The notes under the pieces were generated by a model. It was not told the origin of the DNA. It searched no databases and saw only the letters and a list, made by a program, of their open reading frames with translations. Below, one piece after another: positions 480 through 35,088 of a stretch of DNA of 36,777 nucleotides (within the stretch, counting starts at the first letter, position 1; every line of letters starts with the position of its first letter). This stretch comes from a virus. The DNA lies in IMG/VR virus record IMGVR_UViG_3300028546_000001. One strand, given 5' to 3'. Both the position numbers and the translations under genes were made by a program.

Positions 480-1038
480 ATGAGTGAAACTGACCTCACC
501 ACGATCCCGAACATCGGGCCGACAAGGCCGCGGCGCTGAAAGCCGCTGGCTTCGAGACCACCGACGAGGTCGAGGCCGCCGACGTCGACGAGCTGTGTGA
601 GGCCGACGGGATCGGCCGCCGGACTGCCGAGGACATCCTCGGGATCTCGTCGCTCGACCGCGGTGGCAAAGGAAGCCAAGTTCGAAGACGTCCGCGAGGA
701 CCTCCTGGACGTCGCCACCCGAGCCGGTGACCGACGGGATCGTCGCGAACGCCGCGGGGATCTCTCGGTCGACGTTGCACAACTACCTCGATCGACACCC
801 TGAGTTCGAGCGCGAGTACCGACAGGCTCGGGCCCCAGAACGCCCGCGATATCACGGGCCTCATGCTCGACGACGAGTGGGACGGCGAGGATCGTAACCT
901 GCGGTTCATCGCCGAGCGCGCCCACGGCTTCGTCAAGACCGAAAGCGCGAGGTCGAGGGCAGCATGGAACACACCGGCGAAGGAGGCGGCCCGATGGAGG
1001 TGACTGTCCGCCGTGAGCGTTACGACCCAGACGAGTGA
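480..1038 (+). CDS. terS: terminase small subunit with N-terminal helix-hairpin-helix domain
   Basis: MSETDLTTIPNIGPT(K)AAALKAAGFETTDEVEAADVDELCEADGIGRRTAEDIL (two HhH motifs), then HTH-like ANAAGISRSTLHNYLDRHPEFEREY and a C-terminus ending EHTGEGGGPMEVTVRRERYDPDE*; directly upstream of TerL. Confidence 0.7.
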
Positions 1039-2371
1039 GGGCGCTGTCGAGGTCGGTGGTCACTATTGGGACGCCCAACTGCGGACCTTCGACGCCCTCG
1101 AATCCGGCGACTACGACGTCGTCGTCTTCCGAACCGGCTACGGTGGCGGCAAGACCGTCCTTGGGTCGGACTGGATCTCACCGAGGCCGTCCAGACCCCA
1201 GACGGCCACTACCTCGTGCTCGCGCCCGACCGTCAGAAAGGCGGCCCGGCCACCTACAAAGGCTTTTTCGAGCGCCTCCCGGGCGAGAACACAGTCCCGA
1301 ACGACTCCGCCGGCGACCCTGAGAACTCGCCGATCGTCGCTGGGTATCACGGCACCAAACACCGCCTGACGCTCATCAACGGCGCGGTCGTCCAGCTCGG
1401 CGGGGCCGACGTCTGGTCGCGCTTCGCCGGCTCGGAGTTCAACGCGATCTGGATGGATGAGGTCGCCCACTACGGGACGACAGACCTCTACGATCTCCAC
1501 GAGATGCTCGTCACCCGTCAGCGGACAGAGGCGGGCCCGAACGTCACGCTGTGGACCTCGACCGGCAACGGGTTCAACCAGTTTTACGACATCACCGAGC
1601 GGCAAGTCGACGAAGATGACGAAGCCCTACGGTGGAGCGACCGCTTGAAGATCGTCGTCGGGTCGTCGCTCAACAACCCGTTTTAGAAAGAGAAGATGCG
1701 GGCCCAGTTCGGGGCTCCGAACGCGAGGCCCAAGCGCTGCATGGCGGCTTTAGTGCGGCGACGGGGCTCGTCTACGCCGACTTTTCACGGAACCTACACG
1801 TCACCCCGACCGACGGACTCGCCGATCGCCTCGTCGAGGGACTGGGCGATTTACGGCTACGACGCGGGGTGGGACGACCGCGCGTGCTGCTCGATATTCG
1901 AAAGACCCACACCGACCAGTTCGTTGTCTGGGACTCGTTTTACGAATCCGAGTCGCGGCTCGCCGAAGTGGTCGATCCCGACGGCATCCTCGACGGTCGG
2001 GAGGCGTGGATCAAAAGGGGCGGCCAAAGGGGATCGTCTACGCGGAACACGAACCCGCGCGCACATCCGACAGTTCAAGGCTGCGGGCTGGCCTGCCGTC
2101 AAGGCCGAAAAAGAGCCTCGACGGCGGCATCGACCACGTCCGCGACCGTCTTGCCGTTGATGAAGACGGCCGCCCTGGCGTGCTCATCGCCGATCGGTGC
2201 AGCGATCTCATCCAAGAGTTCGCCTCGTACAAGGAGGACCAAGTCGGGAAGTCGGCGGCAACCGACCACGCCCTTGACTCGCTTCGGTACGCGCTCTTTA
2301 CGCATTACCAACGCTACTCGGGCGACCGGCAGAGTGGTTCGAGCGGTGGCGGTTCGGAGCTCATCAACTAA
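1013..2371 (+). CDS. terL: terminase large subunit
   Basis: Walker A RTGYGGGKT, Walker B AIWMDE, nuclease-domain motifs GYDAGW and DHALDSLRYA; spans several frames. Confidence 0.95.
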
Positions 2372-2373
2372 CC

Positions 2374-2454
2374 ATGACACGAGACAAGACAGCGATCGTC
2401 GAAGACGAAGAGACGGTCGACAAGATCGCCGAGGAGGACAAAGACGATGAGTGA
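2374..2454 (+). CDS. 26-aa acidic ORF between terL and portal
   Basis: MTRDKTAIVEDEETVDKIAEEDKDDE*; uninterrupted, starts 2 nt after the terL stop, stop overlaps the portal start. Confidence 0.45.
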   Translation: MTRDKTAIVEDEETVDKIAEEDKDDE

Positions 2455-3989
2455 CGACGACACCAGCACGGTCAAGTCATCGCTGGTCGGGATGCAGAAG
2501 GCCGCCGGGTCGGCGCGTCATCCGACCAACTCGACGAGCGCTCGATCGGCATCACTGTCGGGCAGGGCATCGCAACGCCCTACCCGACCCACCAACCGCC
2601 GGGCTCCAGGAACTCAACGGCACGCACGCGGTGTGTGTTGAGAAAAAGTCGAAGCGTGAGGTCGGCTACGGCTTCGAGATCGTGCCGCACGAAAACGTCG
2701 ATCCGGAAGACGCCAGCGAAGACGAACGGATTGCTGGAGAACTTCTGGCGGTCGCGGAGACGCTCTGGAAACTCCGGGCCGAAGGGGACGGCTCGCGGCA
2801 CGCCGACCGAGATGCACGAGAAGGCCCGCCAAGACTACCACGGTATCGGGTGGGCGGCCCTCGAAATCATCTACGCCGAGTTCGATGACGAACCTGCGGG
2901 GATGAGCTACCTCCTGCCAAGACCGTCCGCGTCAAAAGCAACCCGGGATGGCGATGGGTTCATCGACGAACAGATCGCGGGCCACGGATACGTTCAAAAG
3001 CGCAACGGGCAGACGCGCTTTTCGCCGAGGCGGGCGATCGGCAGAACACGGACCTCAACGATAACCCCGACCCGCGGTATGTCGACCGGGAGACGGGCGA
3101 GGTCTACCAATCCCATCGAGACGATGCGAAACGAGGGTGCGAAGCCAGCCAACGAGCTGCTGTTCATCCCGAACCCGCACCCGAACACGCTGTACTACGG
3201 CCCGCCGACATGGATCAGCGAGATTCAGACGATGGTCGCCGACCAGGAGGCGCGGCGGTTCAACCGCGAGCGTCTCGAAAACAACCTCATCCTGACTACC
3301 TCATCATCGTCGAGGGCGGCGAACTCTCCGAGGAGTCCCGCAAAGAGGTTCGGGAGCATATCGAGGGGCTCCGCGACGGCGATGGTCCGGGGGCGTTGAT
3401 CCTGGAGGCCGACGACCCGTCGACAAAGGGATCGGCGTCGAAGACCAGAACGTCAAGATCCGCGTCGAGCCGGCGGCTCACTACGGCGACGAAGACATGA
3501 GCTTCGCCAACTACCGGGAGATGAACGAGAAGGACATCGCCAAGGTCCACCACGTCCCCTGCAGATCCTCGGGAACCACGACGCGACGAACGCCAACACC
3601 GAGGAGGCGATCCGAGAGTTCACTGAAGAGACAATCGCACCGGAGCAAGAGCGCTACGCCGAGCGCCTCTATCGCGTCATCCACCAGCAGATCCTGGACG
3701 TCCACGACTGGACGGTCGACTTCGTCACCAAGGGCGCGCGCAACGAACGCGAGCGGGCCGAGATCGGGAAGATGACCGCCGACTCGGTCAAAGAGGTGCT
3801 GACGGTCAACCAAGCGCTCGAACTGTTCGGCCTCGAACCCCCGCGATGACAGATCGGCGAGCGACTCGTCTCCGAGGTATCAACGCAACAGACGCCGGGG
3901 GCGTACCGACGAGGCAGTCACCCAAGTCGCACAGTCGGCGCGCGAAGAGAAGGCCGACGAGCGGATCAAACGCGGGCGTCGGGGACTGA
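2447..3989 (+). CDS. portal protein (HK97/PBSX-like)
   Basis: Position after terL; segments LAGLQELNGTHAVCVEKKSKREVGYGFEI, LLFIPNPHPNTLYYGPPTWISEIQTMVADQEARRFN, SFANYREMNEKDIAKVHHVP, TVNQALELFGLEP; the end is approximate. Confidence 0.88.
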
Positions 3990-3991
3990 CC

Positions 3992-4848
3992 ATGTGCGAG
4001 GCGTGCGGCGGTCGGCAAGTTCCACAAAAACGCCGAGTGCTCTCGAAAGTCGAGTTCTCGCCGGAGGAGGAGAGCGTGTTTTTCAGACGTTCCTCGACGA
4101 CTACATCGACGCCGTCCAGCCGGTCGAGAACGACATCGAAGCGTTCCTCGACGAGGCCAGTGAGGAAGACCTCCGAATCGCTCGAATCGCTCGCGGCGAG
4201 ATCCAACAGCGAGCGGGCGACTACACCAACGACTTCGAAGTGGTGTTCCGGGAAACGGTGAGGACGGTATCCTCGCCGGGCGTGAGCTGGCCGTCCGCCA
4301 GGAGGAGATCGACGTGGCGTTCGACGTTGTCCCCGACCGGACGCTCGACATCCTCGACGAGTGGGTTGACGTCGCCGCCGGGAGTACCCTGGAGACGATC
4401 ACCGAAGACTCGGCGCGGTGGCTCCGCGGGGCGCACAAAGACGGGCTGTCGATCCCCGACATCGCCGACAAGCTCAACGATGAGCTATACGACGGCCGCC
4501 TCGAAGGCTACGTCGCCGAGCGCGCGGCCCGCACGGGGACGATCTCAACGTCGAACGCTGGCGCACACTCGGCGCACGAAGACGCCGACAGCGTCGTCGG
4601 CGAACAGTGGCTGACGTCGATCGATGGGCGGGAGCGCGACTCGCACGCGCAAGCCCACCAACAGGTCGTCGCCGTGGGAACGTCCTTCGAAGTCGGCGGC
4701 GTCTACCTCGATCACCCTGGTGACCCACGCGCCGGTCAGCGAGATCGCCAACTGTCGCTGTGCGACGGCGGCGGTGTTCGCCGATCAACTCACCGAGAGC
4801 CAACTCGAAACGATCCAGAACGGCGGTCGCGTGACGGCCGCGATCTGA
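3992..4848 (+). CDS. head morphogenesis protein (SPP1 gp7 / Mu gpF-like)
   Basis: AERAARTGT, QWLTSIDGRERDSH, HPGDP..P.SEIANCRC motif series typical of MuF; follows the portal. Confidence 0.88.
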
Positions 4849-4919
4849 CACAACCACCGATGACGGCATCCCGCCGGGGGGCTGCCAGAGGTCCATATCC
4901 CGGCGTTCTCAACGGGACA

Positions 4920-5584
4920 ATGACACAGACAGAGCCGCGGCGCTCCAGAAAACCGTCGCCATCAAAGCGACCGACGAGGACGAGCGGACCGCGACGGGCG
5001 CGGCTCTCGTCCCCAACGAGGTCGACGGCGACAGCGCGACTTTCTCAAGCCCGCTGGCATCGAGGCGATGTATGCACCGATCCCGACGACGGGGTCATGC
5101 ACTACCGCTTCGCCGATGATGACGCGGAACTGGTCCGCAACGAGATCATCGACGAGCCCGAGACCATTGGCGGCAAGGAGTACGCCGCCGGCTCGTGGAT
5201 CATCACGCGAAAGTACCACGATGATGAGCTGTGGGCGCTCGTCGATGACGGCGTGCTCACTGGCTTCTCGATCGGCGGCGAAGTCAGCGAGGAAGTCGAA
5301 CGGTCGGCCGATGAACTCGGCGATGGGGTGAACTTCCCGGCCGAGGTCCGAATCCGGGCTTCGGAGATCCTCAACGGCTACACGGCCGAGATCTCCGACG
5401 TCGACATCCCGGCGGTCCCGAACGCCGACCACGCGGAGAAGTCTCTCACAAAGAACCTCGTCGAGCGGGCCGGTGACGAGGAGTCGTTTGTCGAGATGAT
5501 GGAACCGGGGGGCACTCCGAGGAGGATGCCCGACGGCTGTGGGGGCACCTGCAGTCGCCGACCGACAAGGCACAACAACCATGA
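4920..5584 (+). CDS. prohead protease (XkdF-like serine protease)
   Basis: TATGAALVPNEVD, GVMH, GSWIIT, DGVLTGFSIGG, EISDVDIPAVPNA; TGA overlaps the scaffold ATG. Confidence 0.8.
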
Positions 5585-6526
5585 CCAACGACACTGACGA
5601 CCCCGACGCCCCGCCTCTTGACGACGTCGATGACGCCACGCTCGGCAAGCGGCTCAAGGGCCTACTTTTCGGAGGTGACGACGGCGACGGCGACGGCGAC
5701 GACACCGACAGCATCGAGCTGGTCGACGCCGACCCGACCACGACCGCAAAGGCACTGACGCTCGCCAAAGAGGGCCGCACGCTCTCGGAAGCAAACCGAG
5801 AGACGCTGATGGTGGCCCACGACGCCGTCGAGGCGGCGCTCGCGTCGGATATGGACTTCGAGACGAACCGGTTCACAGACAGCGACGAGTACGCCTTCGA
5901 CGTTGCCCAGTATGGCGACTCCGAGGAGAAGGCGCTCGAAAAGCTCACCGAAGAGCAGGGCCAGCTCGTCGCCAACGCCGTCCAACGCTTCGTCGACGCG
6001 CAGGGTGACGCCACATTCGGGGAGTTCGAGAATGGCTGTGGCAGACTGATGCGCTTCGACGACGACACGGCCTTCGCTTCCGACGAGGCGGCGTGGGAGT
6101 TCGTGGAGTGGACGCGCGAGCAGCGAGAGAACGCGGCCGTCAGCGAGGAGTTCATCCCGTACGTGATGGCCGAGAGCGACACCGACACAGAGATCACGAT
6201 GAGCAAAACCGACGACACCGACACCAGCGGAGACGCTGACACCGACAAGTTCGCCAACGCCCCGAATGGGCGGAGGCGCTCAAAGGAACAGGCAGACAAG
6301 AACGCCGATCGCCTCGCCGACCTCGACAAGACCGACGACGGCGACGCACTCGAAGACGCCCCTGAGTGGGCAAAGGCCCTACACGAGCAGTCCGAGAAGA
6401 ACGCCGAACGGATCGACAAGGTCGCCAAAGGCCAGCGCCGAGAGCGACCAGGTCGACGGCGCGGAGAAAACCAGCGAGGAAGATGACGAAGCGAGCGCGT
6501 TCAAGGCCGCGCTCGGAGGGGACTGA
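5581..6526 (+). CDS. putative capsid scaffolding protein (very acidic, coiled-coil)
   Basis: Lies between protease and MCP; contains GRTLSEANRETL; duplicated APEWA.AL.EQ..KNA.R motif near the C-terminus; ends AFKAALGGD*. Confidence 0.7.
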
Positions 6527-6528
6527 GC

Positions 6529-7548
6529 ATGTCGACCAAGCACGCACCGCGAAACCCAGAGCCTGCAGAAGAGCCCGATCAACACGACCGACCTCAGCGG
6601 CGCGCAACTCCCCGAGACCTCTTCGAGGAGTTCATCGAGCGGACCCAAGAGGAGAGCGAACTCCTCGACATGGTCCGCGTCGAGCTGCTGGCGCGAAAAA
6701 GAGATGGCGAAGCCGAAGATCGGCGTCCCCGAACTCTCGGGTGGCACCCGTGCTGAAGACGGCAGCCGCCCCGAGACGTCCAGCGCCACCAGTGGTGCTG
6801 TCGAGTTCAACGTCACCGGTCAGTACTACTACATCAGTACGACCTCAAAGAGGACGCCGTCGAGAACACGATGTCGGATGAGCAGGTCGCCAATCTCATC
6901 CTTTCGCACTTCGAGCGCGCGTGGGCCAACGACGTCCAGAACCTCGCGATCAACGCCGGCGCACCGGTTCCAGCCCCGGCCTCACTCAACGACAAGTTCG
7001 ACGGCTGGATCGCGATCGCCGAGGGCAACGACACCGCCTCGGACCGCATCGGGATCGACGCCGACGGCGAGACCGTCGACACGATGCCGACGTACATCCA
7101 CACCGACACCGGGGACGCAGCGGGGACCGCCCAGCCGGTCAACACCGATCTGTTCAACTCGATGATCCAGACGGTCCCCGAGCGGTTCCGCGACGAGGAC
7201 GAGCAGGTCATCATGCTGAGCAAGTCCCAGCTCCAGGCGTACCACTCCGGGCTGACCGAGCGGAACGACGGGCTCGGCGTCGTGGTCCTGCAGGGAGACT
7301 CGGATGTTACCCCGTTCGGCTACGACATCGTCGGCGTCAGCTACTGGCCCGACGACATCGCGATGCTCATCAACCCCGACCAGCTCGCCTTCGGGCCGTA
7401 CGAGGCCATGGAGATCACGCAGACCACCGACTCCGACAAGACGATGGACGAGGCGCTCCACTCGCGGACGTTGCTCGAAGGACAGTTCGACTTCCAGATC
7501 GAGGAACTGCAGAGTGGCGCACTCGCCACCAACATCCAGGCACCCTGA
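6529..7548 (+). CDS. major capsid protein (HK97 fold)
   Basis: GAQLPRDLFEEFIERTQEESELLDMVRVE..., YDLKEDAVENT, FERAWANDVQNLAING-like segment, TPFGYDIVGVSYWPDD, FDFQIEE; about 340 aa in the canonical MCP slot. Confidence 0.9.
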
Positions 7549-7554
7549 TAACGG

Positions 7555-7875
7555 ATGACTGAACGAGTCCGTCATGTTAGTGGCCCCGGCCGTCTCAACC
7601 ACGGCGCTCTGTCGGGCGTGTCCACTCACGGTGACGAACACGAACTCGACGCCGACACAGCCGCGTACTTCTGTGACGAACTCGGCTACTTCGAGCGCAC
7701 CGGCGAGGTCACGCTCGGCGAGGACGAGTACAGCGTCAAGTCTACCGACGTCGAAGAGGACCTCGAAGACCTGACCTACGACGAACTGCGGGATCTCGCC
7801 ACCGAGGCCGAGATCGACGGGCGTGGGTCGATGAACAAAGACGAACTCATCGCCGCGCTGCGAGACCAGGAGTAA
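7555..7875 (+). CDS. head-associated protein with C-terminal Rho-N/HeH-like domain
   Basis: Intact 106-aa ORF ending LEDLTYDELRDLATEAEIDGRGSMNKDELIAALRDQE. Confidence 0.75.
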   Translation: MTERVRHVSGPGRLNHGALSGVSTHGDEHELDADTAAYFCDELGYFERTGEVTLGEDEYSVKSTDVEEDLEDLTYDELRDLATEAEIDGRGSMNKDELIAALRDQE

Positions 7876-7880
7876 ACTGA

Positions 7881-8506
7881 ATGGCCGACCCAGAGCGATA
7901 CCTGACGGTCGAGGAGCTACAGCGCGAGCTGCCGTTCCATTGACCGACATCAATCCCGACCTGACCGAAGCGGAGTACGACCAACTACTTCAGGACGCAC
8001 TCCGCAGCGAGTCGGCTCGGATCGAGCGCTGGGTCGACGCGTCGAGTTTTCGCTCACCCCAACAACCGAGCAACTCTCGCGCCCCGAGAGCGTCCCCGAG
8101 CGCGAACTCCCACTCCCCGAACGGCCGATCGAATCGGTCCAGTCGGTGACCGTTGAGACAACGTCGGTCACGGATCTCACCGAAGGCGAGGACTACGCCG
8201 TCGAGGGGAGACACACCTCGTCTTACTCAAGGACGCCGCAGTCAACGAGTGGCCGACTGAGTACCGCAGCATCTCGGTCGAGGGACCCACGGCCACGACG
8301 GCGTCCCGGCCGATGTCGAAGAGGCGCTCGTCCGGCTGTGTCGCGCACGGCTCAAGCGCACCCAATCCGACGGTCTCGAATCCGAGAGCACTGGCGACGG
8401 CTCGTCGGTGAGCTACGAACCCGACGAGGTGATGCTCAGTGGCGTCTACGCGACGGTCGACGACTACGACGCGCCATCCTACTACGGAGGCTCGTCGGTC
8501 GTATGA
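7881..8506 (+). CDS. head-tail adaptor (gp6/gp15-like)
   Basis: MADPERYLTVEELQREL..., LPLPERPIESVQSV, EGEDYAV, GHDGVPADVEEALVRLCRARL, DGLESESTGDGSSVSY; position after MCP. Confidence 0.75.
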
Positions 8507-8868
8507 TCCCGAACCGTTGGACGCATCGCCTGACAGCCGAGCGCGGGAGACTGACAGCGCAGGCACCGACGAGTACGGTGCAGCCGCTTCCCGGCGGCAG
8601 CGAGACCGTCATCGGAGACGAGCCCGTCCGTTACCGCCCAGAGTCGACGACGTACGTCCGCACCGAGACGGGCGAACGCGTCAGCGTGCGGCGACGGTCG
8701 TCACACGCGGCCATCTCTTCGGCGAACTTCAGGAGGGCGACACGCTCGAACTTACGCCACTCGGCGGCGGGACAACCATCTCCGGCGTGGAGGTGGTCGG
8801 TGTCGAACCGCAGTACGGCCGCCACAAACGACCGACGTCGCTGGTTATCGAGGTGGACGGGGTCCAAC
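8503..8868 (+). CDS. head closure/stopper protein (putative)
   Basis: ATGA-coupled start; beta-rich ~120-aa protein in the stopper slot; the end is approximate. Confidence 0.55.
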
Positions 8869-9235
8869 ATGGACATCGACTTCCAGATCCAGAACGCGAA
8901 GGATATGCGTTCGATGGCCGAGCGCCTGCAAGAACTTCAGCAGGACGTCCAAAACGGGATCGACGCCGTCGCCGAGGAGATCGGTCTGCGGATCGTCGGC
9001 GACGCACGGCGTGGGGTCAACGTCGACACGGGGCGACTCCGAGCCTCGATCGACTTCGAGACCGAACGCGAAGGTGAGTTCAAGGCCACCGTCGCAGTCG
9101 GTTCGAACGTTGAGTACGCGATCTCCAAGAGTTCGATAACCCCTACGTCCGCCCGGCGATTGAGGAGAACCGCGAGACGATCACCAGCCTCCTGAAGAGG
9201 CCGTCGCCGAGGCGGCCGAGGAGAATAGCGCATGA
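8869..9235 (+). CDS. HK97 gp10-like tail completion protein
   Basis: ARRGVNVDTGRLRASI, VGSNVEYA..QEF..PYVRPAIEEN signature. Confidence 0.85.
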
Positions 9236-9736
9236 CACCCGACACATCCGACCGCGCCGATGGGCGAGTCCGTGAGCTGCGCGGGCTGACGCTCCAGCGG
9301 CTGCGGTCTCACGACGAGCTGGTCGCGCTCCTGGAGGGCGTCGTCGACGACGCGACGGCAGTCATCCTCCGTCGTTCTCGATGAGCCGCTACCGAAACGA
9401 CGACACCGCACCCGATCCGCCGGAGACGGCGCTCGCGGTGTCGGTCGTCACGGGCTCGTCAAGCCGACGCAACCTCAAGGAGGACGTCAACCTGACCGTC
9501 CAGGTCGAACACGAGTTCCGCGCGCGAACGTCCGCCCGTCGCCCGGCGGCGTGTCGTTGGGCGTGCTGCCGTGGCACGACCGCATCGCCGACGGATCTCG
9601 GCCGTCATGACCACCCAAGTCGCTGGGTGGGAGGCCGAGGGCGAAACGGGCGGGACGCCCGGAGCCGCTGTGGGACGACGACCGCAACCGGTACCGATCC
9701 GTCAAACGATTCGATATCGGCGGCTACGGCCGCTGA
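9232..9736 (+). CDS. tail terminator protein (putative)
   Basis: ATGA-coupled; about 165 aa between gp10-like and tail tube genes; ends EPLWDDDRNRYRSVKRFDIGGYGR*. Confidence 0.55.
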
Positions 9737-9767
9737 TAGCAGTTAGCAGTTTCAGCAACATACACAC

Positions 9768-10316
9768 ATGTCAACAGTTAACCGAACCAACAACACCGAA
9801 GTCGAGAACAGCCAAGTCGCCATCATCCTCGCCGACGAGACGGGCGCCGACCCGACGCGCGGACGGTGCTCGCGCTGGCGAGCAAAGACGACCTTCGACG
9901 GCGTTCGACGAGTCCACCGAGGACTTCACGCCCAGCGCAGAACGCCAGACGCGGCAGTACCGCACGAGCCAGACGTTCACTGTCGAGGTCTCGTCGGCGC
10001 TCGCGGCCGACCTCGAAGCGATGACCGAGATCGGGCTGGCGAGCGACAGCGGAACCGACGGTATCGAGTTCTCGACGTCCACCGACGACCGCCGGATCGG
10101 CTTCGGCGAAGAGAAGTACGTCGAGATCGCCTACCCGCCGACGAGCTCCCGAGCCGATCTCTCATCGTTCGACGTCGTCGCCGACACCGAACTGCTCCAC
10201 CGCTTTGGCGACTGCAAGCTCATGAACCCGAGATCGACCCCTCCTCAACGCCGCCGATGGCGTCTGGGAGTGGGCCGTCGAGGGAGAAGTACATCGACTA
10301 CGACCCGGCAGCATAA
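9768..10316 (+). CDS. major tail (tube) protein
   Basis: About 180 aa, acidic, in the slot before the chaperone and TMP; no sheath gene is present. Confidence 0.7.
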   Translation: MSTVNRTNNTEVENSQVAIILADETGADPTRGRCSRWRAKTTFDGVRRVHRGLHAQRRTPDAAVPHEPDVHCRGLVGARGRPRSDDRDRAGERQRNRRYRVLDVHRRPPDRLRRREVRRDRLPADELPSRSLIVRRRRRHRTAPPLWRLQAHEPEIDPSSTPPMASGSGPSREKYIDYDPAA

Positions 10317-10322
10317 TCTCCC

Positions 10323-10888
10323 ATGAGCACTAAAATCGCCAACCCCGACGCGCTCGGGGACACCCCGCGATGCGCTCGAAGAAAAGCGTCAGTCGCGAAA
10401 AAGACGAACGTCTCGAACTGCAGGGCACGGCCCGCGACCTGTTCGTCGCCCGCAACGAGGACACCTTCGAGATCGAGGTCCACGGCAACGACATCGAGTT
10501 CTACCGGCCCATGTCGGCCCGGGACGTCGAACTCACGGGCGTCGACGAGGAGACCCGCGAGCGGATCGAACACGGCGCGGCACTCCTCGACGAGTTCGAG
10601 GCTCGGCAGCATCGACTCATGCAGGCGACGCAGTCTGACGACATGTCGCTTCAACGACCTCATCGACGAGTCGAAAGGTGGTGTCGAGCTAATGGCTGAA
10701 GTGCTGCTGGCCGCCCACGCCGTCGACGAATCGCTGCAGGACGCCCGAGCGTGGCGGTCGATCTACCGCAACGACAACAAGCTGGGGACCTGTTCGAGGA
10801 TTTTACCGCGGAGGGCGACGGCCAGTCCCAACAGGAGAAGCTCAACGCCTTGGAGAATCTGACCTCGGACAACACCTCTACGAGCTGA
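10323..10888 (+). CDS. tail assembly chaperone (gpG-like)
   Basis: Between tail tube and TMP; contains FEIEVHGNDIEFYRPM; rebuilt end EKLNALENLTSDNTSTS*. Confidence 0.7.
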
Positions 10889-11013
10889 AGAAAGAGGTGG
10901 GGATCGACCCCCAAGAGTGGTACGCGATGGATCAAGCGGAGCAAATGTTTTGGACGAGCGCACACAATCAGCACGTCGAACATGTCACACCCGACAACCA
11001 ACAGCGACACTGA
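10798..11013 (+). CDS. gpT-like -1 frame extension of the tail chaperone
   Basis: Stop-free -1 frame ...GQHLYELKKEVGIDPQEWYAMDQAEQMFWTSAHNQH...; candidate slippery heptamer G_GAT_TTT at 10798-10804. Confidence 0.55.
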   Translation, partial: GFYRGGRRPVPTGEAQRLGESDLGQHLYELKKEVGIDPQEWYAMDQAEQMFWTSAHNQHVEHVTPDNQQRH

Positions 11014-11190
11014 CACTGACGAGCGGAGCCAAGCAGCGAACAACCGGCTGTTTGGTGGGATCCTCGTGCTCGTTGGCGCTGTCGCGGCGACTGTCGGGCT
11101 GCTGTTCTGGCCAGCGCTGGTGGTCGCCCTCCTCATATGGGGCTGGCCGCCGTGGCCGTCGTGCTGTCGTTCGTCTCCGATGACGAGTAA
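10982..11190 (+). CDS. small two-TM membrane protein between chaperone and TMP
   Basis: RLFGGILVLVGAVAATVGLLFWPALVVALLIWG(L)AAVAVVLSFVSDDE*. Confidence 0.6.
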
Positions 11191-11197
11191 CTAACAC

Positions 11198-13232
11198 ATG
11201 CCTTTTGAGTCACTGACAGCAGTCCTCGACCTCGATAGCTCCGGCTTTTGAGTCGGGTATCCAGGACGCCGAGGGGAGCATGGGGTCGCTCAAGACCGAG
11301 CGGCAAGCACCGGCAAGTCCATGCAACGAGCTGGCGGCGCGATGACTGCCGGGTCACGGCCCGCTGGCGGCCATGGGTGCGATGTCGGTCAGACTCGCCG
11401 GCAACTTCGACCAGGCCATGCAGCGCTCGATTGCGGTGATGGGCGACGTCGACGGTGCGATGAAAGGGCGGCTCGAAGCGACCGCTCGCGAGGTTGCCAA
11501 CACGACGACCCACTCAGCCCAGCAAGCCGCCGACTCGTACTACTTCCTCGCCAGCGCCGGCCTCGACGCCGCCGAGGCGATGGAAGCCATGCCGCAGGTC
11601 GCAGGCGTTCGCGGAGGCCGGCCAATTGAAAATGGCCGAGGCGACCGACGTCGCGACCAACGTGATGAGCGGCCTACGGGCGCGAGGCCGACGAAATGGC
11701 CTCGGTCACCGATACACTGACCGCGACTGTCGCGAACCACAACCAGACCATGCCGGGGATGGCCTCGGCGATGAGCACGGTCGCGCCGATCGCGTCGTCG
11801 CTCGGTATCAGCCTCGAAGAGACGTCGGCGGCCATCGGTCAGATGGGAGACGTCGGTATCAAGGCGAGCGGGCAGGGACGGCGCTACGGAACGTCTTCTC
11901 GCAGCTCTCAGACGAGTTCGACAGTAGCCACCGAACTCGAAGGGATGGGCGTGGCGACGCGAAACTCCTCGGGCGAGGTCGTCTCGATGACCCAACTCCT
12001 GTCAAACATGGAGTCGGCGGGCGTCGAGGCCGGCGACGCGGCGAAAATCTTCGGGACAGAAGCCGGCCCCGCCATGGCCGCGCTCATGCAGGAAGGTTCG
12101 GACGCTCTCGCTCAGAAACCCAACGAATCAGCGAAGCCGAGGGTGCGACGAAACAGATGGCGCAGACTCAGCGCGACACACTCAACGCCGAGATGCAGAT
12201 CGCCAAGAGCAACATCCAAGACGTCGGGATCGCCATCGGTGGCGACCTCATCCCGATGGTGTCGACGCTAACTGGCTACATCTCGACAGGGGCCGACCGG
12301 TTTCAGGACCTCAATGGCGACCAGCGCCGGGCGATCATCCTCCCTCGGCGGTGTCGCCGCAATCGGCCCTGTCCTGCTCGCCGGCGGGACACTGCTGACG
12401 ATGCTCCCGGCGATAGCGACTGGGTGGGGATGGCAACCGGTGCGGCGAGTGGCTTTGCAGCCTCGCTCACTGGGGAGTTGTCCCCGCGGCACTGGCGGCC
12501 AACGTGGCTCTCGGACCGATTACCGTCCCCGTGTGGGCGATCATCGCGGCCATCGGGGCAGCCATCGCCATCGGCTACGGGCTCTACCGCGCGTGGACGA
12601 GCAACTTCTACGGAGTCCGAGACACGGTCACCGACGCACTGGGGACGGTCAAAGGCTGGCTCGATGCTGCACCGGGTGGATGCTACTCCTTCTCGGGCCG
12701 CTCGGTCAGCTGTACTACGCCTGGCGGAGAACCTCTTCGGGATCCAAGACATCGTCGGGTCGGTGTTCGATTGGATCGGCGACAAGATCGGCTGGCTGAT
12801 AGACAAAATCGAGTCGATCCCTGGGATTGGTGAGAAAATCGACGGCGAGGCGAACGTCGACAGCAACATGCCCGATGCGCCAGAAGAGCCCAGTCGCTCG
12901 CCAGTAACCGCCCGAGGCAATGCCGCCGCCGAATCAGACCTCCTCCCCGCCCTCGACATCGTCGCTCCGACCCCCGAAGAGGCAGCGTCTACAGCGATGT
13001 CGTCGACGTCGTGGGCGCCGTCGGCCGACCTCGTCGCCGGCGCGAGTACCTCTGCGAGCCCCAGCGCTGGCAGTGCCGGGATGAGCACCCAGGAGTTCAA
13101 GACCGCGCTTCGGGAGGTCCTTGAAGGGCTTCGGTTGGAGACGCGACTCGAAACCGACCAGCGGGGCTCGAACAGTGGATCGAAGACATCGCCGACGCCC
13201 AGATCGCTGAGGCAGGAGGTGCGCGGCCGTGA
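11198..13232 (+). CDS. tail tape measure protein (TP901-like core)
   Basis: MPFESLTAVLDLDSSGFESGI..., NFDQAMQRSIAVMG, AADSYYFLASAGLDA, GIKASGQGTALRN, IGGDLIP, later hydrophobic/Trp-periodic segments; ends IAEAGGARP*. Confidence 0.93.
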
Positions 13233-19074: not shown

Positions 19075-19190
19075 GCGTCGCGAAGCGTCTCTAAACAAGT
19101 ACTGCGAACAGCAGGTGGCAGACCGCGATGATCGTCTGGGAATGGCCGCCCAGGCGAGCGACAACGGGCCATCCGATGGAGGTTTTACTT

Positions 19191-19729
19191 ATGGCGAAAA
19201 TCGAGAGAAAAAAGGAGACACGATCACGGTCGGTGAGACATTCGAGCGCCCCGGCGGTCGGTCGCAGGCGCTTGATCTCTCAGACGCACAGTCAGTAAAA
19301 TATACGTCGACCACCCAAGCAGCGGCGATCCGTGGTCAACGACACGGCCGAGATCACGGACGCCGCAAACGGGATGGTTGAGTACACGCTGGGCGGCACG
19401 CAAACCGCGCGCCAAGGAAAACATCGCCTTGAGTTCGTCGCGGAGTTCGCCGGGCGGGGAGACCTTCAGCTACCCCCCCAGACAGGCTTTATCTCGCTGA
19501 AGGTGACCGACCCTGCGCCCCGCGAGTTGCCGATCGAGGAGTTGGCCGATGGCGACGCCAGCGTGACGGGGTTGGCCGCCGACGCGATCCGAGTTTCAAC
19601 ACCGCCTCGGCGGTGGATGTCATGGACGCGCTCGATCTCAACAACAACCCGATCACCAGCCTGCCGGTTCCTCCAACCCCGCCGACGCCGCGCGAAAAGA
19701 CGGTCTCGACACAGTTGCGTCTGATCTAT
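19191..19729 (+). CDS. BppU-N-like tail fibre/baseplate protein, 5' part (interrupted by IS)
   Basis: GGAGG RBS; MAKIERKKGDT...LDLSDAQSVKI...AEITDAANGMVEYTL..QTARQGKHRLEFVAEF..GETFSYP..GFISLKV; fibre motif NPADAARK. Confidence 0.75.
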
Positions 19730-21175
19730 CTTTTCACACAGGAGAGAATCCCGCCGTTTACGGCGGGCGTGAATCCGACACTTGCTGACCAGTCCACCGA
19801 TGACACTCTGGCCGGATATTCCACGGTAATCGACATTATTAAGTAACTGGTTCTACATAGGCTATGTATGGCGAATCTCACCGTCACGCGCACCTACGTT
19901 GGTTCTATCCAGAACCATCGGCAGGTGTCTGATGGTCTGGATTCGCTCGGGGATTCCGCCTCGAAAATCTGGAACGTCGCACGTTGGACAGCCGGCCGAA
20001 TCTGGGATGTAACCGGAGAAATCCCCTGACGAGGGCGTTCTGAAATCGTGTATGAAGAACCGGTCGTGCTGGAAAGACTTGAACGCGCAATCCAGTCAGA
20101 AAGTCATCGAAGAACTTTCTGACGCTTTCCAGTCGTGGTTCGACCTGCGACACAAGTTTGACAGGCGAATCCACCCGGCTACCGCAAACACGGCGACACC
20201 CGACCCGCGTTCCACGGTGACATTCAAAGACGGGTTCAAACACGACCCCGAGAACAACCGCGTCCGGCTCTCTCGAAAGGCTCGAACCTGAAAGAATACT
20301 GGTCGGACTTCCTGCTCTGAGTACCAGACGCCCTGACATTGACCTCTCTGAAGTCAACCGAGTGCAGAACGTTCGCGCCGTCTGGAACGGCGACGAGGTG
20401 GGAACTTCACTTCGTCTGCAAAGTCGAACTCGAAACGAACGACTCCGCAGGCGACGAAGTGGCGGGGATTGACCTTGGCATCAAGAACATCGCCACGGTC
20501 GCGTTCCCGACGAATACGTTCTCTACCCGGTAACTCGCTCAAAGAAGACAAGCACTACTTCAAACGAGCCGAGTACGACACCGAAGGTGAACGGCCCCTC
20601 GGAGAAGTCGATGTGGGCACGTCGGAAACTCGCAGACCGTGAGACGCACTTCTACCACGTCCTCACGGACACCATAATTACGGGTGTGTCGAACGCGGTG
20701 TTGGAACGCTCGCAGTGAGTTGGCCTGAAAGAGGTGCGAGAGTCCGACTGGGGCAAGACCGGCAACAAGAAGTTACACTCGTGGGCGTTCGACCGCATCT
20801 ACCAGTACCTCGCGTACAAAGGCGAGATTCGTGGTGTCGAGGTACTGAAGGAGAACGAGTGGAACACCTCGAAGACGTGTTCAGCGTGTGGTGACACCAC
20901 GAAGTCGAACCGTGTCGAACGTGGTCTGTACGTTTGTTCGTCGTGTGGGTTGGTCGGGAACGCGGATTGCAACGGGGCGGAGAATATGCGTCGAAGATAA
21001 CTCCGAGTCCTCACGGCGAGGATAGGAGTAACGGCTGTGTGGCACAGCCATCGACATACTTGTTCGACCGCGAGAGCGGGACGTTTCACACGAGAGAACA
21101 AGCCGTGTCGTAGACCAGCAAATATCCCACCTGCGGTACGGGAAGCCCCGGCGTTCACGCCGGGGAGGATGTCAC
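19730..21175 (+). mobile_element. IS200/IS605-family element, IS1341-type (tnpB only, no tnpA)
   Basis: Left-end hairpin CCCGCCG-TTTA-CGGCGGG (19750-19767) with guide AGAA (19745-48) matching target CTAT (19726-29); right-end hairpin CCCCGGCG-TTCA-CGCCGGGG (21146-65) with guide GAAG and terminal TCAC (21172-75). Confidence 0.92.
19868..21113 (+). CDS. tnpB: TnpB (RNA-guided endonuclease family)
   Basis: N-terminal WNVAR/AQSSQKVIEELSDAFQSWF, RuvC-I AGIDLGIKN, zinc finger TSKTCSACG...YVCSSCG, RuvC-III NADCNGAENMR. Confidence 0.95.
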
Positions 21176-22315
21176 CGTCGGTCGAATCTGACCTAACATC
21201 ACAAGTAACCCGCTTCGACGAACTGGCGATTGATCGCGGCCCGATCTCGGCGCGGCCGACCAGCGGGGACTACGACGACCAGATGTTCCTCGCGGTGGAT
21301 CAACGCATCCTGTGGCGGTGGGATGGGATCATCCGACTGGAACGCCGCGGGCGGCCTCGGTGTGTCGTCGCAGCGCCTACCGGCAACGTCCTACCTCGAC
21401 GCCGTCGACGTCAGCACGCTGGCGGCGGGGACGTCAACCTGTCCGGCACGCTCCTCCTCGGGGATGCAGCCGACGTCGCCGGCAACCCACTACAGAACGT
21501 CGATACGGTCACCGCCTCGGGGACCGCGATCTCGGTCGACTCACCTGTCGCCGGCCAGAGCCCCAGACTGAGACGCACCTCACGACCAAGGGGTATGTCG
21601 ACAGCGTCGCCTGGGGGGCCGACTGGCAGGAGAGCGTCCTCGAACGACGCAACGACCCACCGGCCGCCAAGCGACGGAGATCGTTATCTCGTTGACGACG
21701 CGCCGACTGGCGACTGGTCGGCCAACGCGCGGATGAGATCGCGGAGTGGGATGCCGACGCCGCAGCGTGGGTGTTCTATGACCCTAACGAGGGTTGGGCG
21801 GTGTTCATTGAGAGCCTCAACGTCCTGGAGACGTTCGTCGACGGTGCTTGGGTCGACTTTGGCTCCGCCATCGATCACGGCGCACTCACCGGGACGGGAG
21901 ACGACGACCACCTGCAGTACCTCCACGTCGACGGGCCGGCGGTCGCCTGACAGGATCCTCGATGCCGACGACAACGATCCGAAAACGTTGGGGCTGTCTC
22001 GAGACCGAGAACGTGGTCGCCGACGCGGGAGCATCGTACGATATCGATCTCTCGAATGGCGGCGTGCACAAGATCACACTGACGCAAGACTGCGACATCA
22101 CACTCTCAGGAATCGACGCAGCGGCCTCGAACTCGGCGACGCTGATCGTTGAGCAGGACAGGACGGGCGGCACTCGCTGACGTGGTCGACGGCCGTGCTG
22201 TGGCCTGGTGGCAACCGCCGAGTGTCTCCGACGGAGCTGGGGAGATCGACCGTCTCGCGTTCACGTACATTGATGGCGACTGGCTCGGGAGTGGGGCAGG
22301 GCAGGGTTCGCCTAA
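21176..22315 (+). CDS. tail fibre protein, 3' part (DUF2793-like domain plus C-terminal beta domain)
   Basis: TTKGYVDS, WQESVLERRNDPPAAPSDGDRYLVDDAPTGDWS...IAEW....W.FYDPNEGWAVF (DUF2793-like), IDHGALTG.GDDDH.QY, DIDLSNGGVHKITLTQD...TLIVEQD.TGG. Confidence 0.75.
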
Positions 22316-22972
22316 TGGTACTGAATGCGACACACAACGCGCAGTGCTGTCGTCAGGAATTGCTATACCCGTCCTTGGACTCTTGCATCAGTACGACTGG
22401 TCCGACGCCTCTACGACAACCTCAACTGTCCCCGACTTAGCAGGTGACGACGACCTTACTGGAGGGTTTACGGATCTCAATGCCACGATAAATGGCGTCC
22501 AAGCGGGGAATTTCGATGGGACCGCCGACTCTGTTTCAGGCGCGTTTTCGTCGTCGGTGGCCCAACCTGTCGAAATATTCTCGGTGGCGGAAACGTCCAA
22601 TAACGGTGATACGCAAATTATCACGACGGGGACGAACAACAACAGTATCACGGCGAAACGGTTTATAACGACTGATGTTGGCTACCAGCTTCACGCAGGC
22701 AACAATCTTAAAGGCGGGAGCCCCGCGTCGAACGACCCCGAACTGTTGACGACAAGGTTCGACGGGGAGTTCGCTTCGCGCGTTAACGGGTCTGAAGAGT
22801 TGTCTGGACCCGCGGGCACGAACGGTATGGACGGGTTGGTCGTTTCGTGACGACCTGCCCTGTTGATGGCGCAGTCGCCGAAGTGTTGGTCTACGACCCA
22901 ACTGTTTCGGACTATTCGCGGAGCGATGTTGAGCAGTATCTCGCAGATAAGTGGGGCATCACGCTCGCATAA
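22315..22972 (+). CDS. putative receptor-binding protein, LamG/concanavalin-like
   Basis: TAATG coupling; GNFDGTADSV, LLTTRFDG, RVNG, DGAVAEVLVYD...DVEQYLADKWGI is a typical LamG-like tail module; visibly lower GC. Confidence 0.65.
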
Positions 22973-23709: not shown

Positions 23710-24083
23710 TCACCTGTTTTTCGAGCGGATCTCGCGGTTCGCTTGCTTGGAGTTCGAGGCGATCTCCGCGATCCGATTGATACGGCGGTTGACCGTCGAC
23801 TTGCTCTTTTCCCAGCTGCTGTAGCGGTCGGAGAACTCCTCAGAGTGAGTTCAACACGGACGTCGAAGTCGAACGGCACTTCCCGGGCCGACTTCGGCGT
23901 TTTCGGCTTCCATCTTCTCCCCGACCGCTTCCTCATACGTGATGTTCACTTGGTTGCGTAGTTGCAACGCTGTTTCGTGGATGTCGTCCTCACCGAGGTC
24001 GCGCAGTGCCTCCTGGTCGAACTCTCGCGAATATCTTCCATCTTGAAGTTGGTCTCGCTAACTCGAAGGCCCATCTCACCCAT
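23710..24083 (-). pseudogene. truncated tyrosine-recombinase (halovirus integrase-like) derivative
   Basis: MGEMGLRVSE (box I-like), WKPKTPKSAREVPFDFDVRVEL, SKSTVNRRINRIAE; stops before any HxxR or catalytic Tyr motif. Confidence 0.55.
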
Positions 24084-24219
24084 CGTCGGCCTCTTCGTCG
24101 TCTTCGCCGACATCGTCCTCGTCGGCGTCGACGTCCATGTCCTCGGGCAGCGTGCCGTTCTCCTCGGCGAGCCGCAGCTGCGCGACGGCGTTCGCGTGGT
24201 TGTTGTCGTGGTCAGTCAT
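24076..24219 (-). CDS. 47-aa highly acidic protein
   Basis: Intact MTDHDNNHANAVAQLRLAEENGTLPEDMDVDADEDDVGEDDEEADDG*. Confidence 0.6.
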   Translation of the reverse strand: MTDHDNNHANAVAQLRLAEENGTLPEDMDVDADEDDVGEDDEEADDG

Positions 24220-25181: not shown

Positions 25182-25550
25182 GTGAGCACAGCAACCAACA
25201 CGCCGGACATGCGCAGCTTCAGGCGACCTTCGGGACGTCGACGAGGCTCGACTACCTTCGCGAGGGACGGTGACGCCGGCTCACGCCCGTGAGCGCGTCG
25301 CGTCCGACGATGGTGAGGAGTACAGTCGTGGCTACGTACAGCAGCGCCTTTCGCGCTTAGAAGAGCACGGCCACGCGACAAACCTTGGCGGCGGTCTCTA
25401 CGAACTCGTCGACCCGCGCGACGACGTCGGACAAGAAGACGCCGTCGCCGAGCTGAAAGAACACGTCTGCGCGCCGCTGGCGAAGCGATCGACGACCAAG
25501 ACACCGACGCGCTCCGGCGTCACGTCCGTGCCGCCTGTGAGGTACTTTGA
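25182..25550 (+). CDS. winged-helix repressor (phiH1 repressor-like)
   Basis: D..LDYLREG.VTPAHARER....EYSRGYVQQRLSRLEEHGHATNLGGGLYELV is a wHTH recognition helix plus wing; faces a divergent operon. Confidence 0.75.
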
Positions 25551-25634
25551 CGATGAACGCGACTGAACAACGCGCGCCCGAGCTGCAGTGGCGAGGGATA
25601 CCTGCGCACGGCGCCGGCCGAGCGCGAGTCCTAC

Positions 25635-25780
25635 CTAATTCAGCGAGAGAGTCCCGCCGTTTATGGCGTTGACGACGCGAAGCGTCTCGTTCGCATCAGA
25701 ACGCTTCTGCGTTCTGAGGACGGGAGTGAATCGCGTCACCAACGACGCGAACCACCGATTACCAACTACGAAGTCCACTA
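25635..25780 (+). mobile_element. solo left end of an IS200/IS605 element
   Basis: CTAC target (25631-34), guide AGAG, hairpin arm TCCCGCCGTTTATGGCG...GGGAGTGAAT resembling the tnpB element's left end; no tnpB or right end follows. The 3' limit is approximate. Confidence 0.65.
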
Positions 25781-34894: not shown

Positions 34895-35088
34895 ATGACT
34901 ACAATCACACTCAGCGACGAAGCGGGCGAAGTCTTCCAGGGAGGCGAAGGACCTCATCGACTCGGAGGCCGAAGCCGTCGGCGCCGATCGGGCGACACGT
35001 GGTCGCTCGGCTGGCGAGCTCCAAGAACGACGAGGTCGTCCGCGTGCTGGCGCTCGCCTATCTCGGGAGGCTCGGCTATGATGAGTGA
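34895..35088 (+). CDS. small hypothetical protein
   Basis: MTTITLSDEAGEVFQEAKDLI...NDEVVRVLALAYLGRLGYDE*. Confidence 0.45.

Follow-up and report, generated by a model that had tools for sequence, protein, structure and literature searches.

Insertion sequences (IS) of the IS200/IS605 family, as worked out for IS608 and ISDra2, carry subterminal hairpins, insert 3' of a tetranucleotide without duplicating it and keep their guides 5' of the hairpins, while an omega-RNA runs over the 3' end of tnpB and the right end of the element. In the established TnpB model this RNA takes its guide from the right flank, and the target site serves as the target-adjacent motif (TAM) (PMC8612924; 10.1101/2023.03.14.532601; PMC10690162). 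Here we describe a locus with the same layout, known from its sequence, in a 36,777-nucleotide stretch of viral DNA (IMG/VR record IMGVR_UViG_3300028546_000001, hereafter the window), which represents the nearly complete and circularly permuted genome of a tailed Halorubrum virus from Antarctica, related to HRTV-DL1 (OP630574, Deep Lake, Antarctica; about 95% identity over the parts in common). An IS1341-type, that is tnpB-only, element interrupts the homologue of HRTV-DL1 (DL1) open reading frame 25 (ORF25). It departs from IS608 and ISDra2 in lacking a tnpA of its own, in using CTAT as its target, in leaving 1 nt between left guide and hairpin foot, and in encoding a TnpB of the NADxN type whose RuvC-II site is rearranged. 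The best account, and one we consider likely to be right, is that a tnpB-only element of the host transposed into ORF25 of the virus.

Transfer of a host transposon into a virus is a known kind of event, of which this is a tidy case. ISH1.8/ISH12 in Halobacterium virus PhiH1 (PMC6210493) is likewise an IS200/IS605 element of which a host copy entered a tailed virus of haloarchaea, and it gives rise to virus variants; it has both tnpA and tnpB and sits beside the L region, whereas the window element is tnpB-only and lies inside a tail-fibre-like gene. The palindrome-associated transposable element (PATE) of HRTV-DL1, reported to be highly transcribed at its right-end side (10.1101/2022.10.18.512658), comes from the same virus group and host and has related left-end hairpin and right-end sequences. 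It is, however, a non-coding derivative of 489 bp that lies between ORF2 and ORF3, whereas the window has a full-length tnpB element elsewhere and is without that PATE. The sot RNAs of Halobacterium IS1341-type elements (Rfam RF02656 sot0042), to which the window gives a full-length model match above the gathering score, were described as sense-overlapping small RNAs of a cellular genome, whereas the copy studied here is in a virus. Finally, the homing endonucleases and localized marker exclusion of phages (T4 SegF; PMC13565253), in which an element-free co-infecting genome is cut and then converted or excluded, would offer a parallel if the window TnpB were active, except that they recognise their target by protein, whereas the window element would do so by RNA and lacks an intron or intein by which the interrupted gene would be preserved.

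The insertion and the gene that it interrupts comprise four features:

19730-21175, + strand: insertion sequence, IS200/IS605 family, IS1341 type (tnpB-only), missing from the DL1 ORF25 site and 93% identical to host copies.
19726-19729, + strand: CTAT target tetranucleotide, the left cleavage site and presumed TAM, kept in the DL1 empty site.
19332-19729, + strand: 5' part of the ORF25 homologue (DL1 codons 1-131); tblastn of DL1 ORF25 places residues 1-132 over three frames, owing to window-specific frameshifts.
21176-22318 (end approximate), + strand: 3' part of the ORF25 homologue (DL1 codons 132-516), by blastn to L001 5921-7127 and by tblastn.

The element is delimited by its own empty site. 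By blastn, window 19121-19730 aligns to positions 5309-5921 of our HRTV-DL1 record (L001) and window 21176-22367 to positions 5921-7127, and in the alignment the DL1 empty site consists of the left flank of the window through CTAT joined directly to the flank from 21176. Filled and empty alleles thus differ by the element alone, at a scarless site where a target-site duplication is absent. A 1-nt ambiguity, a C that could be assigned to either 19730 or 21176, is settled by the host copies: because their right end stops at ...TCAC, the element is 19730-21175, 1446 nt long. The first-pass annotation, made from the letters of the window, had predicted that IS-free homologues would join 19729 to 21176 and that this junction would restore the frame. 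Both predictions were borne out, as the joined flanks read DLSSVESDL, in frame, at residues 129-137 of DL1 ORF25, and the same joint occurs in HRTV-DL1, on five Joint Genome Institute (JGI) metagenome contigs (L020, L023, L033, L034 and L037) and in contigs from four runs, of which two are DNA metagenomes of salt lakes, one is a metatranscriptome and one an RNA-seq of a single organism. In the DNA runs the depth of the empty joint (353 in run X1) is about that of the virus flanks (350-434).

The interrupted gene follows the tape-measure gene, ORF22-23 and the FN3/sialidase gene ORF24. Its DL1 homologue is present in virions by mass spectrometry, with a role called enigmatic (PMC10544981), and matches Pfam DUF2793 and several PHROG tail-fibre families at E-values of 1e-9 to 1e-5. 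We use the label 'tail-fibre' on the strength of these PHROG and Pfam hits, synteny and the published virion proteomics; they uphold the earlier claim of a tail-fibre gene as far as 'tail-fibre-like', a receptor-binding role not having been shown. The insertion, we infer, would truncate the ORF25 product after residue 131 of 516. On contig L037 (5626-7401, minus strand), 100% identical to DL1 ORF25, the frame is open for 75 codons further upstream and, 49 codons ahead of the annotated GTG, includes an ATG; the annotated ORF25 start may therefore be wrong.

Both ends of the element carry the signals expected of single-strand recognition of the IS608 kind:

19745-19748, + strand: left guide AGAA, read from the sequence; its position 4 covaries with target position 4.
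19750-19767, + strand: left-end subterminal hairpin with a 7-bp stem and TTTA loop, read from the sequence and kept in the host copies and the DL1 solo left end.
21142-21145, + strand: right guide GAAG, read from the sequence; its sequence varies in step with the final base of the right end.
21146-21165, + strand: right-end subterminal hairpin with an 8-bp stem and TTCA loop, read from the sequence and identical in the host copies.
21172-21175, + strand: right cleavage site TCAC, with which the element ends; host copies close on the same TCAC with unrelated flanks.

Subterminal hairpins are present at both ends and terminal inverted repeats are absent. The guides lie 5' of the hairpins where the first-pass annotation had placed them, although its numbering of the left guide as +16..+19 has to be amended to +15..+18, since the window has an extra C at 19739. 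Our comparison of left ends took in 13 related ones from genomes, the solo end of DL1 and a diverged solo one at window 25631 onward. Position 4 of target and guide reads T:A in nine elements, C:G in four and T:G in one, and CTAT itself precedes the left end in three host copies and in 9 of the 13 genomic relatives. At the right end, TCAC occurs with GAAG in ten elements and TCAT with GAAA or GATA in three, with one exception. This covariation of position 4 at both ends supports an IS608-like pairing scheme, positions 1-3 being mostly invariant or non-canonical. Ends, hairpins, guides and TnpB domains thus agree with the identification, made at first pass, of a tnpB-only IS200/IS605 element with IS608-like end recognition.

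Copies on the Halorubrum lacusprofundi replicons pHLAC01 and pR1SE2 are 93% identical to the window element, each with an intact 417-aa TnpB. A miniature inverted-repeat transposable element (MITE) derived from the family lies directly 3' of the full copy on pHLAC01, and at its left end it shares 99% identity with the window. The family is multicopy and conserved, and forms a high-copy repeat in the samples that contain the empty-site contigs. The element is evidently of host origin, from the H. lacusprofundi mobilome; the exact TnpB variant, sought among cluster representatives, found a best match of 89% identity, and the donor replicon is not nameable beyond H. lacusprofundi-like copies. As to the derivatives, the full pHLAC01 element (record L004) occupies 1504-2958 and the MITE 2971-3296, starting 12 bp past the right end of the former at another CTAT; the MITE retains a left end of about 140 bp and a right end of about 190 bp, and its insertion falls inside the would-be guide segment of the upstream element. 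A MITE form also occurs in metagenome contigs (runs X1 and X2), minus 1127 nt of tnpB (joint at window 19865-20993) and with 8 other bases at the joint.

The coding capacity of the element has to be read against the quality of the window. Measured against the DL1 proteins, the genes for the large terminase, portal, capsid, tape measure and primase each break up into 2-6 reading frames, and in 12.4 kb (e.g. window 827-13148) gap openings number 125 between the window and an IMG/VR sibling, G001, and 35 between that sibling and DL1. By this comparison the window evidently holds about 1% window-specific indel errors, which makes frame-based readings unsafe anywhere in it. The gene in question is

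19868-21113, + strand: tnpB, with about 14 indels in the window; 417 codons without an internal stop after normalising indels to the host copy.

Those frameshifting indels would suit a dead relic, in which a truly decayed tnpB is left as an inert scar in a degenerating provirus. Against such a pseudogene, equal indel densities are found in the terminase, portal, capsid and primase genes, and within the element the density (16 per 1465 nt) equals the window background. Contigs of the four runs, from Illumina sequencing, show no substitution relative to the element and differ from it at 12 indel positions, the same places where the host copy differs. When indel states are set as in the host copy, with unknown bases entered as N, nonsense substitutions are absent and the frame has no stop and 94% amino-acid identity to the host TnpB. 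There is also a precedent in ISH1.8 of PhiH1, the tnpB of which was once thought split and proved intact on accurate sequencing (PMC6210493). Because of the background indel density, the Illumina contigs, the stop-free normalised frame and this precedent, the breaks in the window tnpB are probably sequencing artefacts; the real gene is probably intact, and we reject the relic as improbable.

The TnpB so reconstructed has the domains of its family. Pfam PF01385 (OrfB_IS605) and PF07282 (the Cas12f1-like_TNB zinc ribbon) match the host copy, PF07282 also matches window 20734-21000, and the sequence relatives in the PDB are solved Cas12f and TnpB structures. Conserved in the family are D203, D369, four cysteines and the NADxN motif. 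Residues D296 and E374 (host-copy numbering) are also conserved; the RuvC-II region corresponds to window 20700-20760 and host TnpB residues 281-297. TnpB clades with a 'rearranged RuvC-II' have been described, with predicted activity (PMC10691335).

In the account that we favour, an element of the H. lacusprofundi mobilome would have entered a replicating virus genome by single-strand 'peel-and-paste', 3' of CTAT in ORF25. With ORF25 truncated, that genome would probably be defective or helper-dependent and make up a minority within a mixed population of viruses; the population from which HRTV-DL1 comes is known to be a mixture of variants. Three findings weigh against this account. Firstly, the canonical RuvC-II glutamate is replaced by Ser in the window TnpB, and 97 of 99 relatives have Gly or Ser there; the missing residue matches the published rearranged-site clades, and any nuclease activity would rest on that predicted site. 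Secondly, a transposase has to come from elsewhere. The first-pass annotation had looked to a cognate tnpA in the host, and pHLAC01 does encode an IS200/IS605 TnpA, that of ISHla21, whose ends are similarly built, sharing the TTTA and TTCA loops with similar hairpin-to-end spacing; it is at most a candidate for the cognate transposase, and its partner TnpB is only 26% identical.

Thirdly, the filled junctions are known from the window alone, an assembled sequence and not source reads, and from no independent contig or run. Contigs of the four runs contained none, although contigs lose rare variants and this is no proof of absence; a metagenome scan for exact right-flank matches returned no filled site; and IMG/VR, scanned for the right flank and for each of the two filled junctions, yielded no match, a result that carries no weight on absence. 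An assembly chimera, in which a virus contig took in a host copy of the IS, would explain why the filled junctions are seen nowhere else, and the element is indeed a high-copy repeat in the same samples. Both junctions, however, lie at the exact ends of the element, at CTAT and at one nucleotide of ORF25, with flank neither lost nor gained, a transposition signature that repeat misassembly would not mimic. We therefore reject the chimera, to which we give very little chance, and retain transposition from the host.

The 3' end of the element carries the RNA that would direct TnpB:

20995-21175, + strand: scaffold of the omega-RNA (sot RNA), in overlap with both the 3' end of tnpB and the right end of the element; Rfam RF02656 sot0042.
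21176-21195, + strand: predicted omega-RNA guide segment, placed by the established TnpB model.

In full length, the sot0042 model aligns to 20995-21166 with 95.5 bits (gathering score 88; E 6e-25), in agreement with the scaffold proposed earlier at the element 3' end. The region folds better than shuffled sequences (z = -3.7); the right-end hairpin comes at the end of the fold, and most of the flank is left unpaired. An uninterrupted CTAT plus the flank from 21176 is found in DL1 and in the same five JGI contigs, so that the predicted guide does match the IS-free allele of the siblings as claimed, yet this is nothing special to the present element: because the established model takes the guide from the right flank, a match to the empty allele is built into every TnpB element. 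An omega-RNA carrying the first 16-20 nt or so of the right flank, with CTAT as TAM, would accordingly be programmed against the IS-free ORF25 allele and, if TnpB cuts, the insertion would be retained and spread during co-infection and its reversion disfavoured.

The first-pass annotation had raised the prospect of an active RNA-guided homing or anti-competitor system, in which TnpB cuts IS-free siblings at CTAT plus the 21176 flank and so converts them by recombination or excludes them. Scaffold, guide position, TAM and target all agree with the TnpB model; IS-free siblings predominate in natural samples and would provide targets; and the element family is multicopy and conserved. Coverage of the right end is very deep in RNA contigs of infected-culture-like runs (all copies pooled), high expression is reported for the PATE of HRTV-DL1 in the preprint cited above (10.1101/2022.10.18.512658), and a general proposal of 'non-restorative homing' into co-infected phages is already in print (PMC13565253). 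Set against this are the non-canonical RuvC-II site, an intact tnpB that is inferred and not read directly, and the consideration that such a drive would spread the knock-out of a virion gene and be self-limiting unless complemented. On balance we regard an active system as plausible, though unlikely. Somewhat less likely again, in our estimate, is its fuller form, in which an IS-bearing genome, defective yet persisting, uses its TnpB and omega-RNA to cleave the ORF25 of IS-free siblings upon co-infection; this would amount to 'non-restorative homing', or exclusion, between archaeal viruses at a site also targeted by host CRISPR.

The same layout had led the first-pass annotation to propose a transposase-gated switch, in which the fibre is off with the IS in and on with the IS out, as set by host TnpA acting in trans. 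Scarless excision, as in the IS200/IS605 family, would restore the frame, and ISHla21 on pHLAC01 supplies a host tnpA whose ends have similar hairpin loops and hairpin-to-end spacing. As to the coexistence of both states in one population, independent data hold the empty state alone, at flank depth. The filled site is found in the window alone, and the empty alleles are most simply explained by genomes that never received the element, not by revertants; excision in known systems is rare and unregulated, and we see no sign of selection for the off state. The switch also conflicts with homing, because an active TnpB would cut the revertants again. We accordingly set the switch aside as unsupported and highly improbable and keep to a host element that transposed into ORF25.

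The insertion point is in addition spanned by a spacer in natural CRISPR arrays of the H. lacusprofundi type. Our metagenome scan with the right flank also returned three such arrays (L019, L021 and L031), with a 31-nt repeat identical to that of the H. lacusprofundi pHLAC01 array. Each holds a spacer of 35-36 nt that is identical to DL1 22695/6-22730 and corresponds to window 19723-19729 joined to 21176-21204; its protospacer spans the insertion point (L019:178-213; L021:542-576 and 608-642; L031:986-1020):

21176-21207, - strand: split protospacer, its 29 PAM-proximal nt (21176-21204) and protospacer-adjacent motif (PAM; 21205-21207), matched by spacers in L019, L021 and L031; the other 6-7 nt are found at 19723-19729.

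The PAM side was inferred from eight protospacers, six of which have GTA on the + strand. Because the neighbouring spacers differ between two of the arrays that hold the spanning spacer, the sequences point to its independent acquisition. Overall, 179 distinct spacers define 16 protospacers on the window, and known protospacers cover 1.3% of DL1, with 2 of its 69 CTAT sites inside one.

From this overlap it might be argued that the insertion persists since it splits a targeted protospacer and so evades CRISPR: two different arrays carry a 35-36-nt spacer across the very point of insertion, with a repeat identical to that of pHLAC01. The element displaces just 6-7 PAM-distal bases, however, and leaves the PAM and the 29 PAM-proximal nt intact in the window. 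Other spacers still match the window, among them one of the pHLAC01 array of strain ACAM34 that hits ORF25 at 21251-21284, 46 bp downstream of the split protospacer. Moreover, the arrays were found through this very site, which leaves no fair probability for coincidence. Evasion as the reason for persistence has, in our view, only a slim chance, and we record the overlap of spacer and insertion as a coincidence, not a mechanism. Full escape was likewise considered and judged unlikely, given the 29 untouched PAM-proximal nt and the ACAM34 array, in which the spanning spacer is absent.

Insertion into ORF25 is one of several marks that this transposon family has left. By the traces in the window and in DL1, the same IS/PATE family evidently struck the virus lineage at least four times. 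The 489-bp PATE of DL1 at ORF2/3 (L016 606-1089) follows CTAC. At the corresponding place the window has 177 bp (34903-35079) that end in CTAT and continue a small ORF from an ATG at 34895; because the window has this stretch there instead, the DL1 PATE appears to have replaced it rather than simply split it. DL1 further carries a solo left end (L001 8457-8602, DL1 25238-25383; 95% identical), preceded by CTGT and located directly 5' of ORF28 and the host-identical methyltransferase ORF29, where the window differs in sequence (23721-24113); this arrangement suggests that host DNA was captured beside an IS end in DL1. The diverged solo left-end relic of the window, at 25631-25740, has target CTAC, guide AGAG and a hairpin interrupted by an insert.

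For the family and its viruses, the locus supplies two naturally matched alleles of a single virion gene, one with the IS and one without, in a virus-host system that can be cultivated, HRTV-DL1 with Halorubrum lacusprofundi. It is thereby suited to testing whether TnpB mediates homing between co-infecting viruses, which has hitherto been proposed in general terms only.

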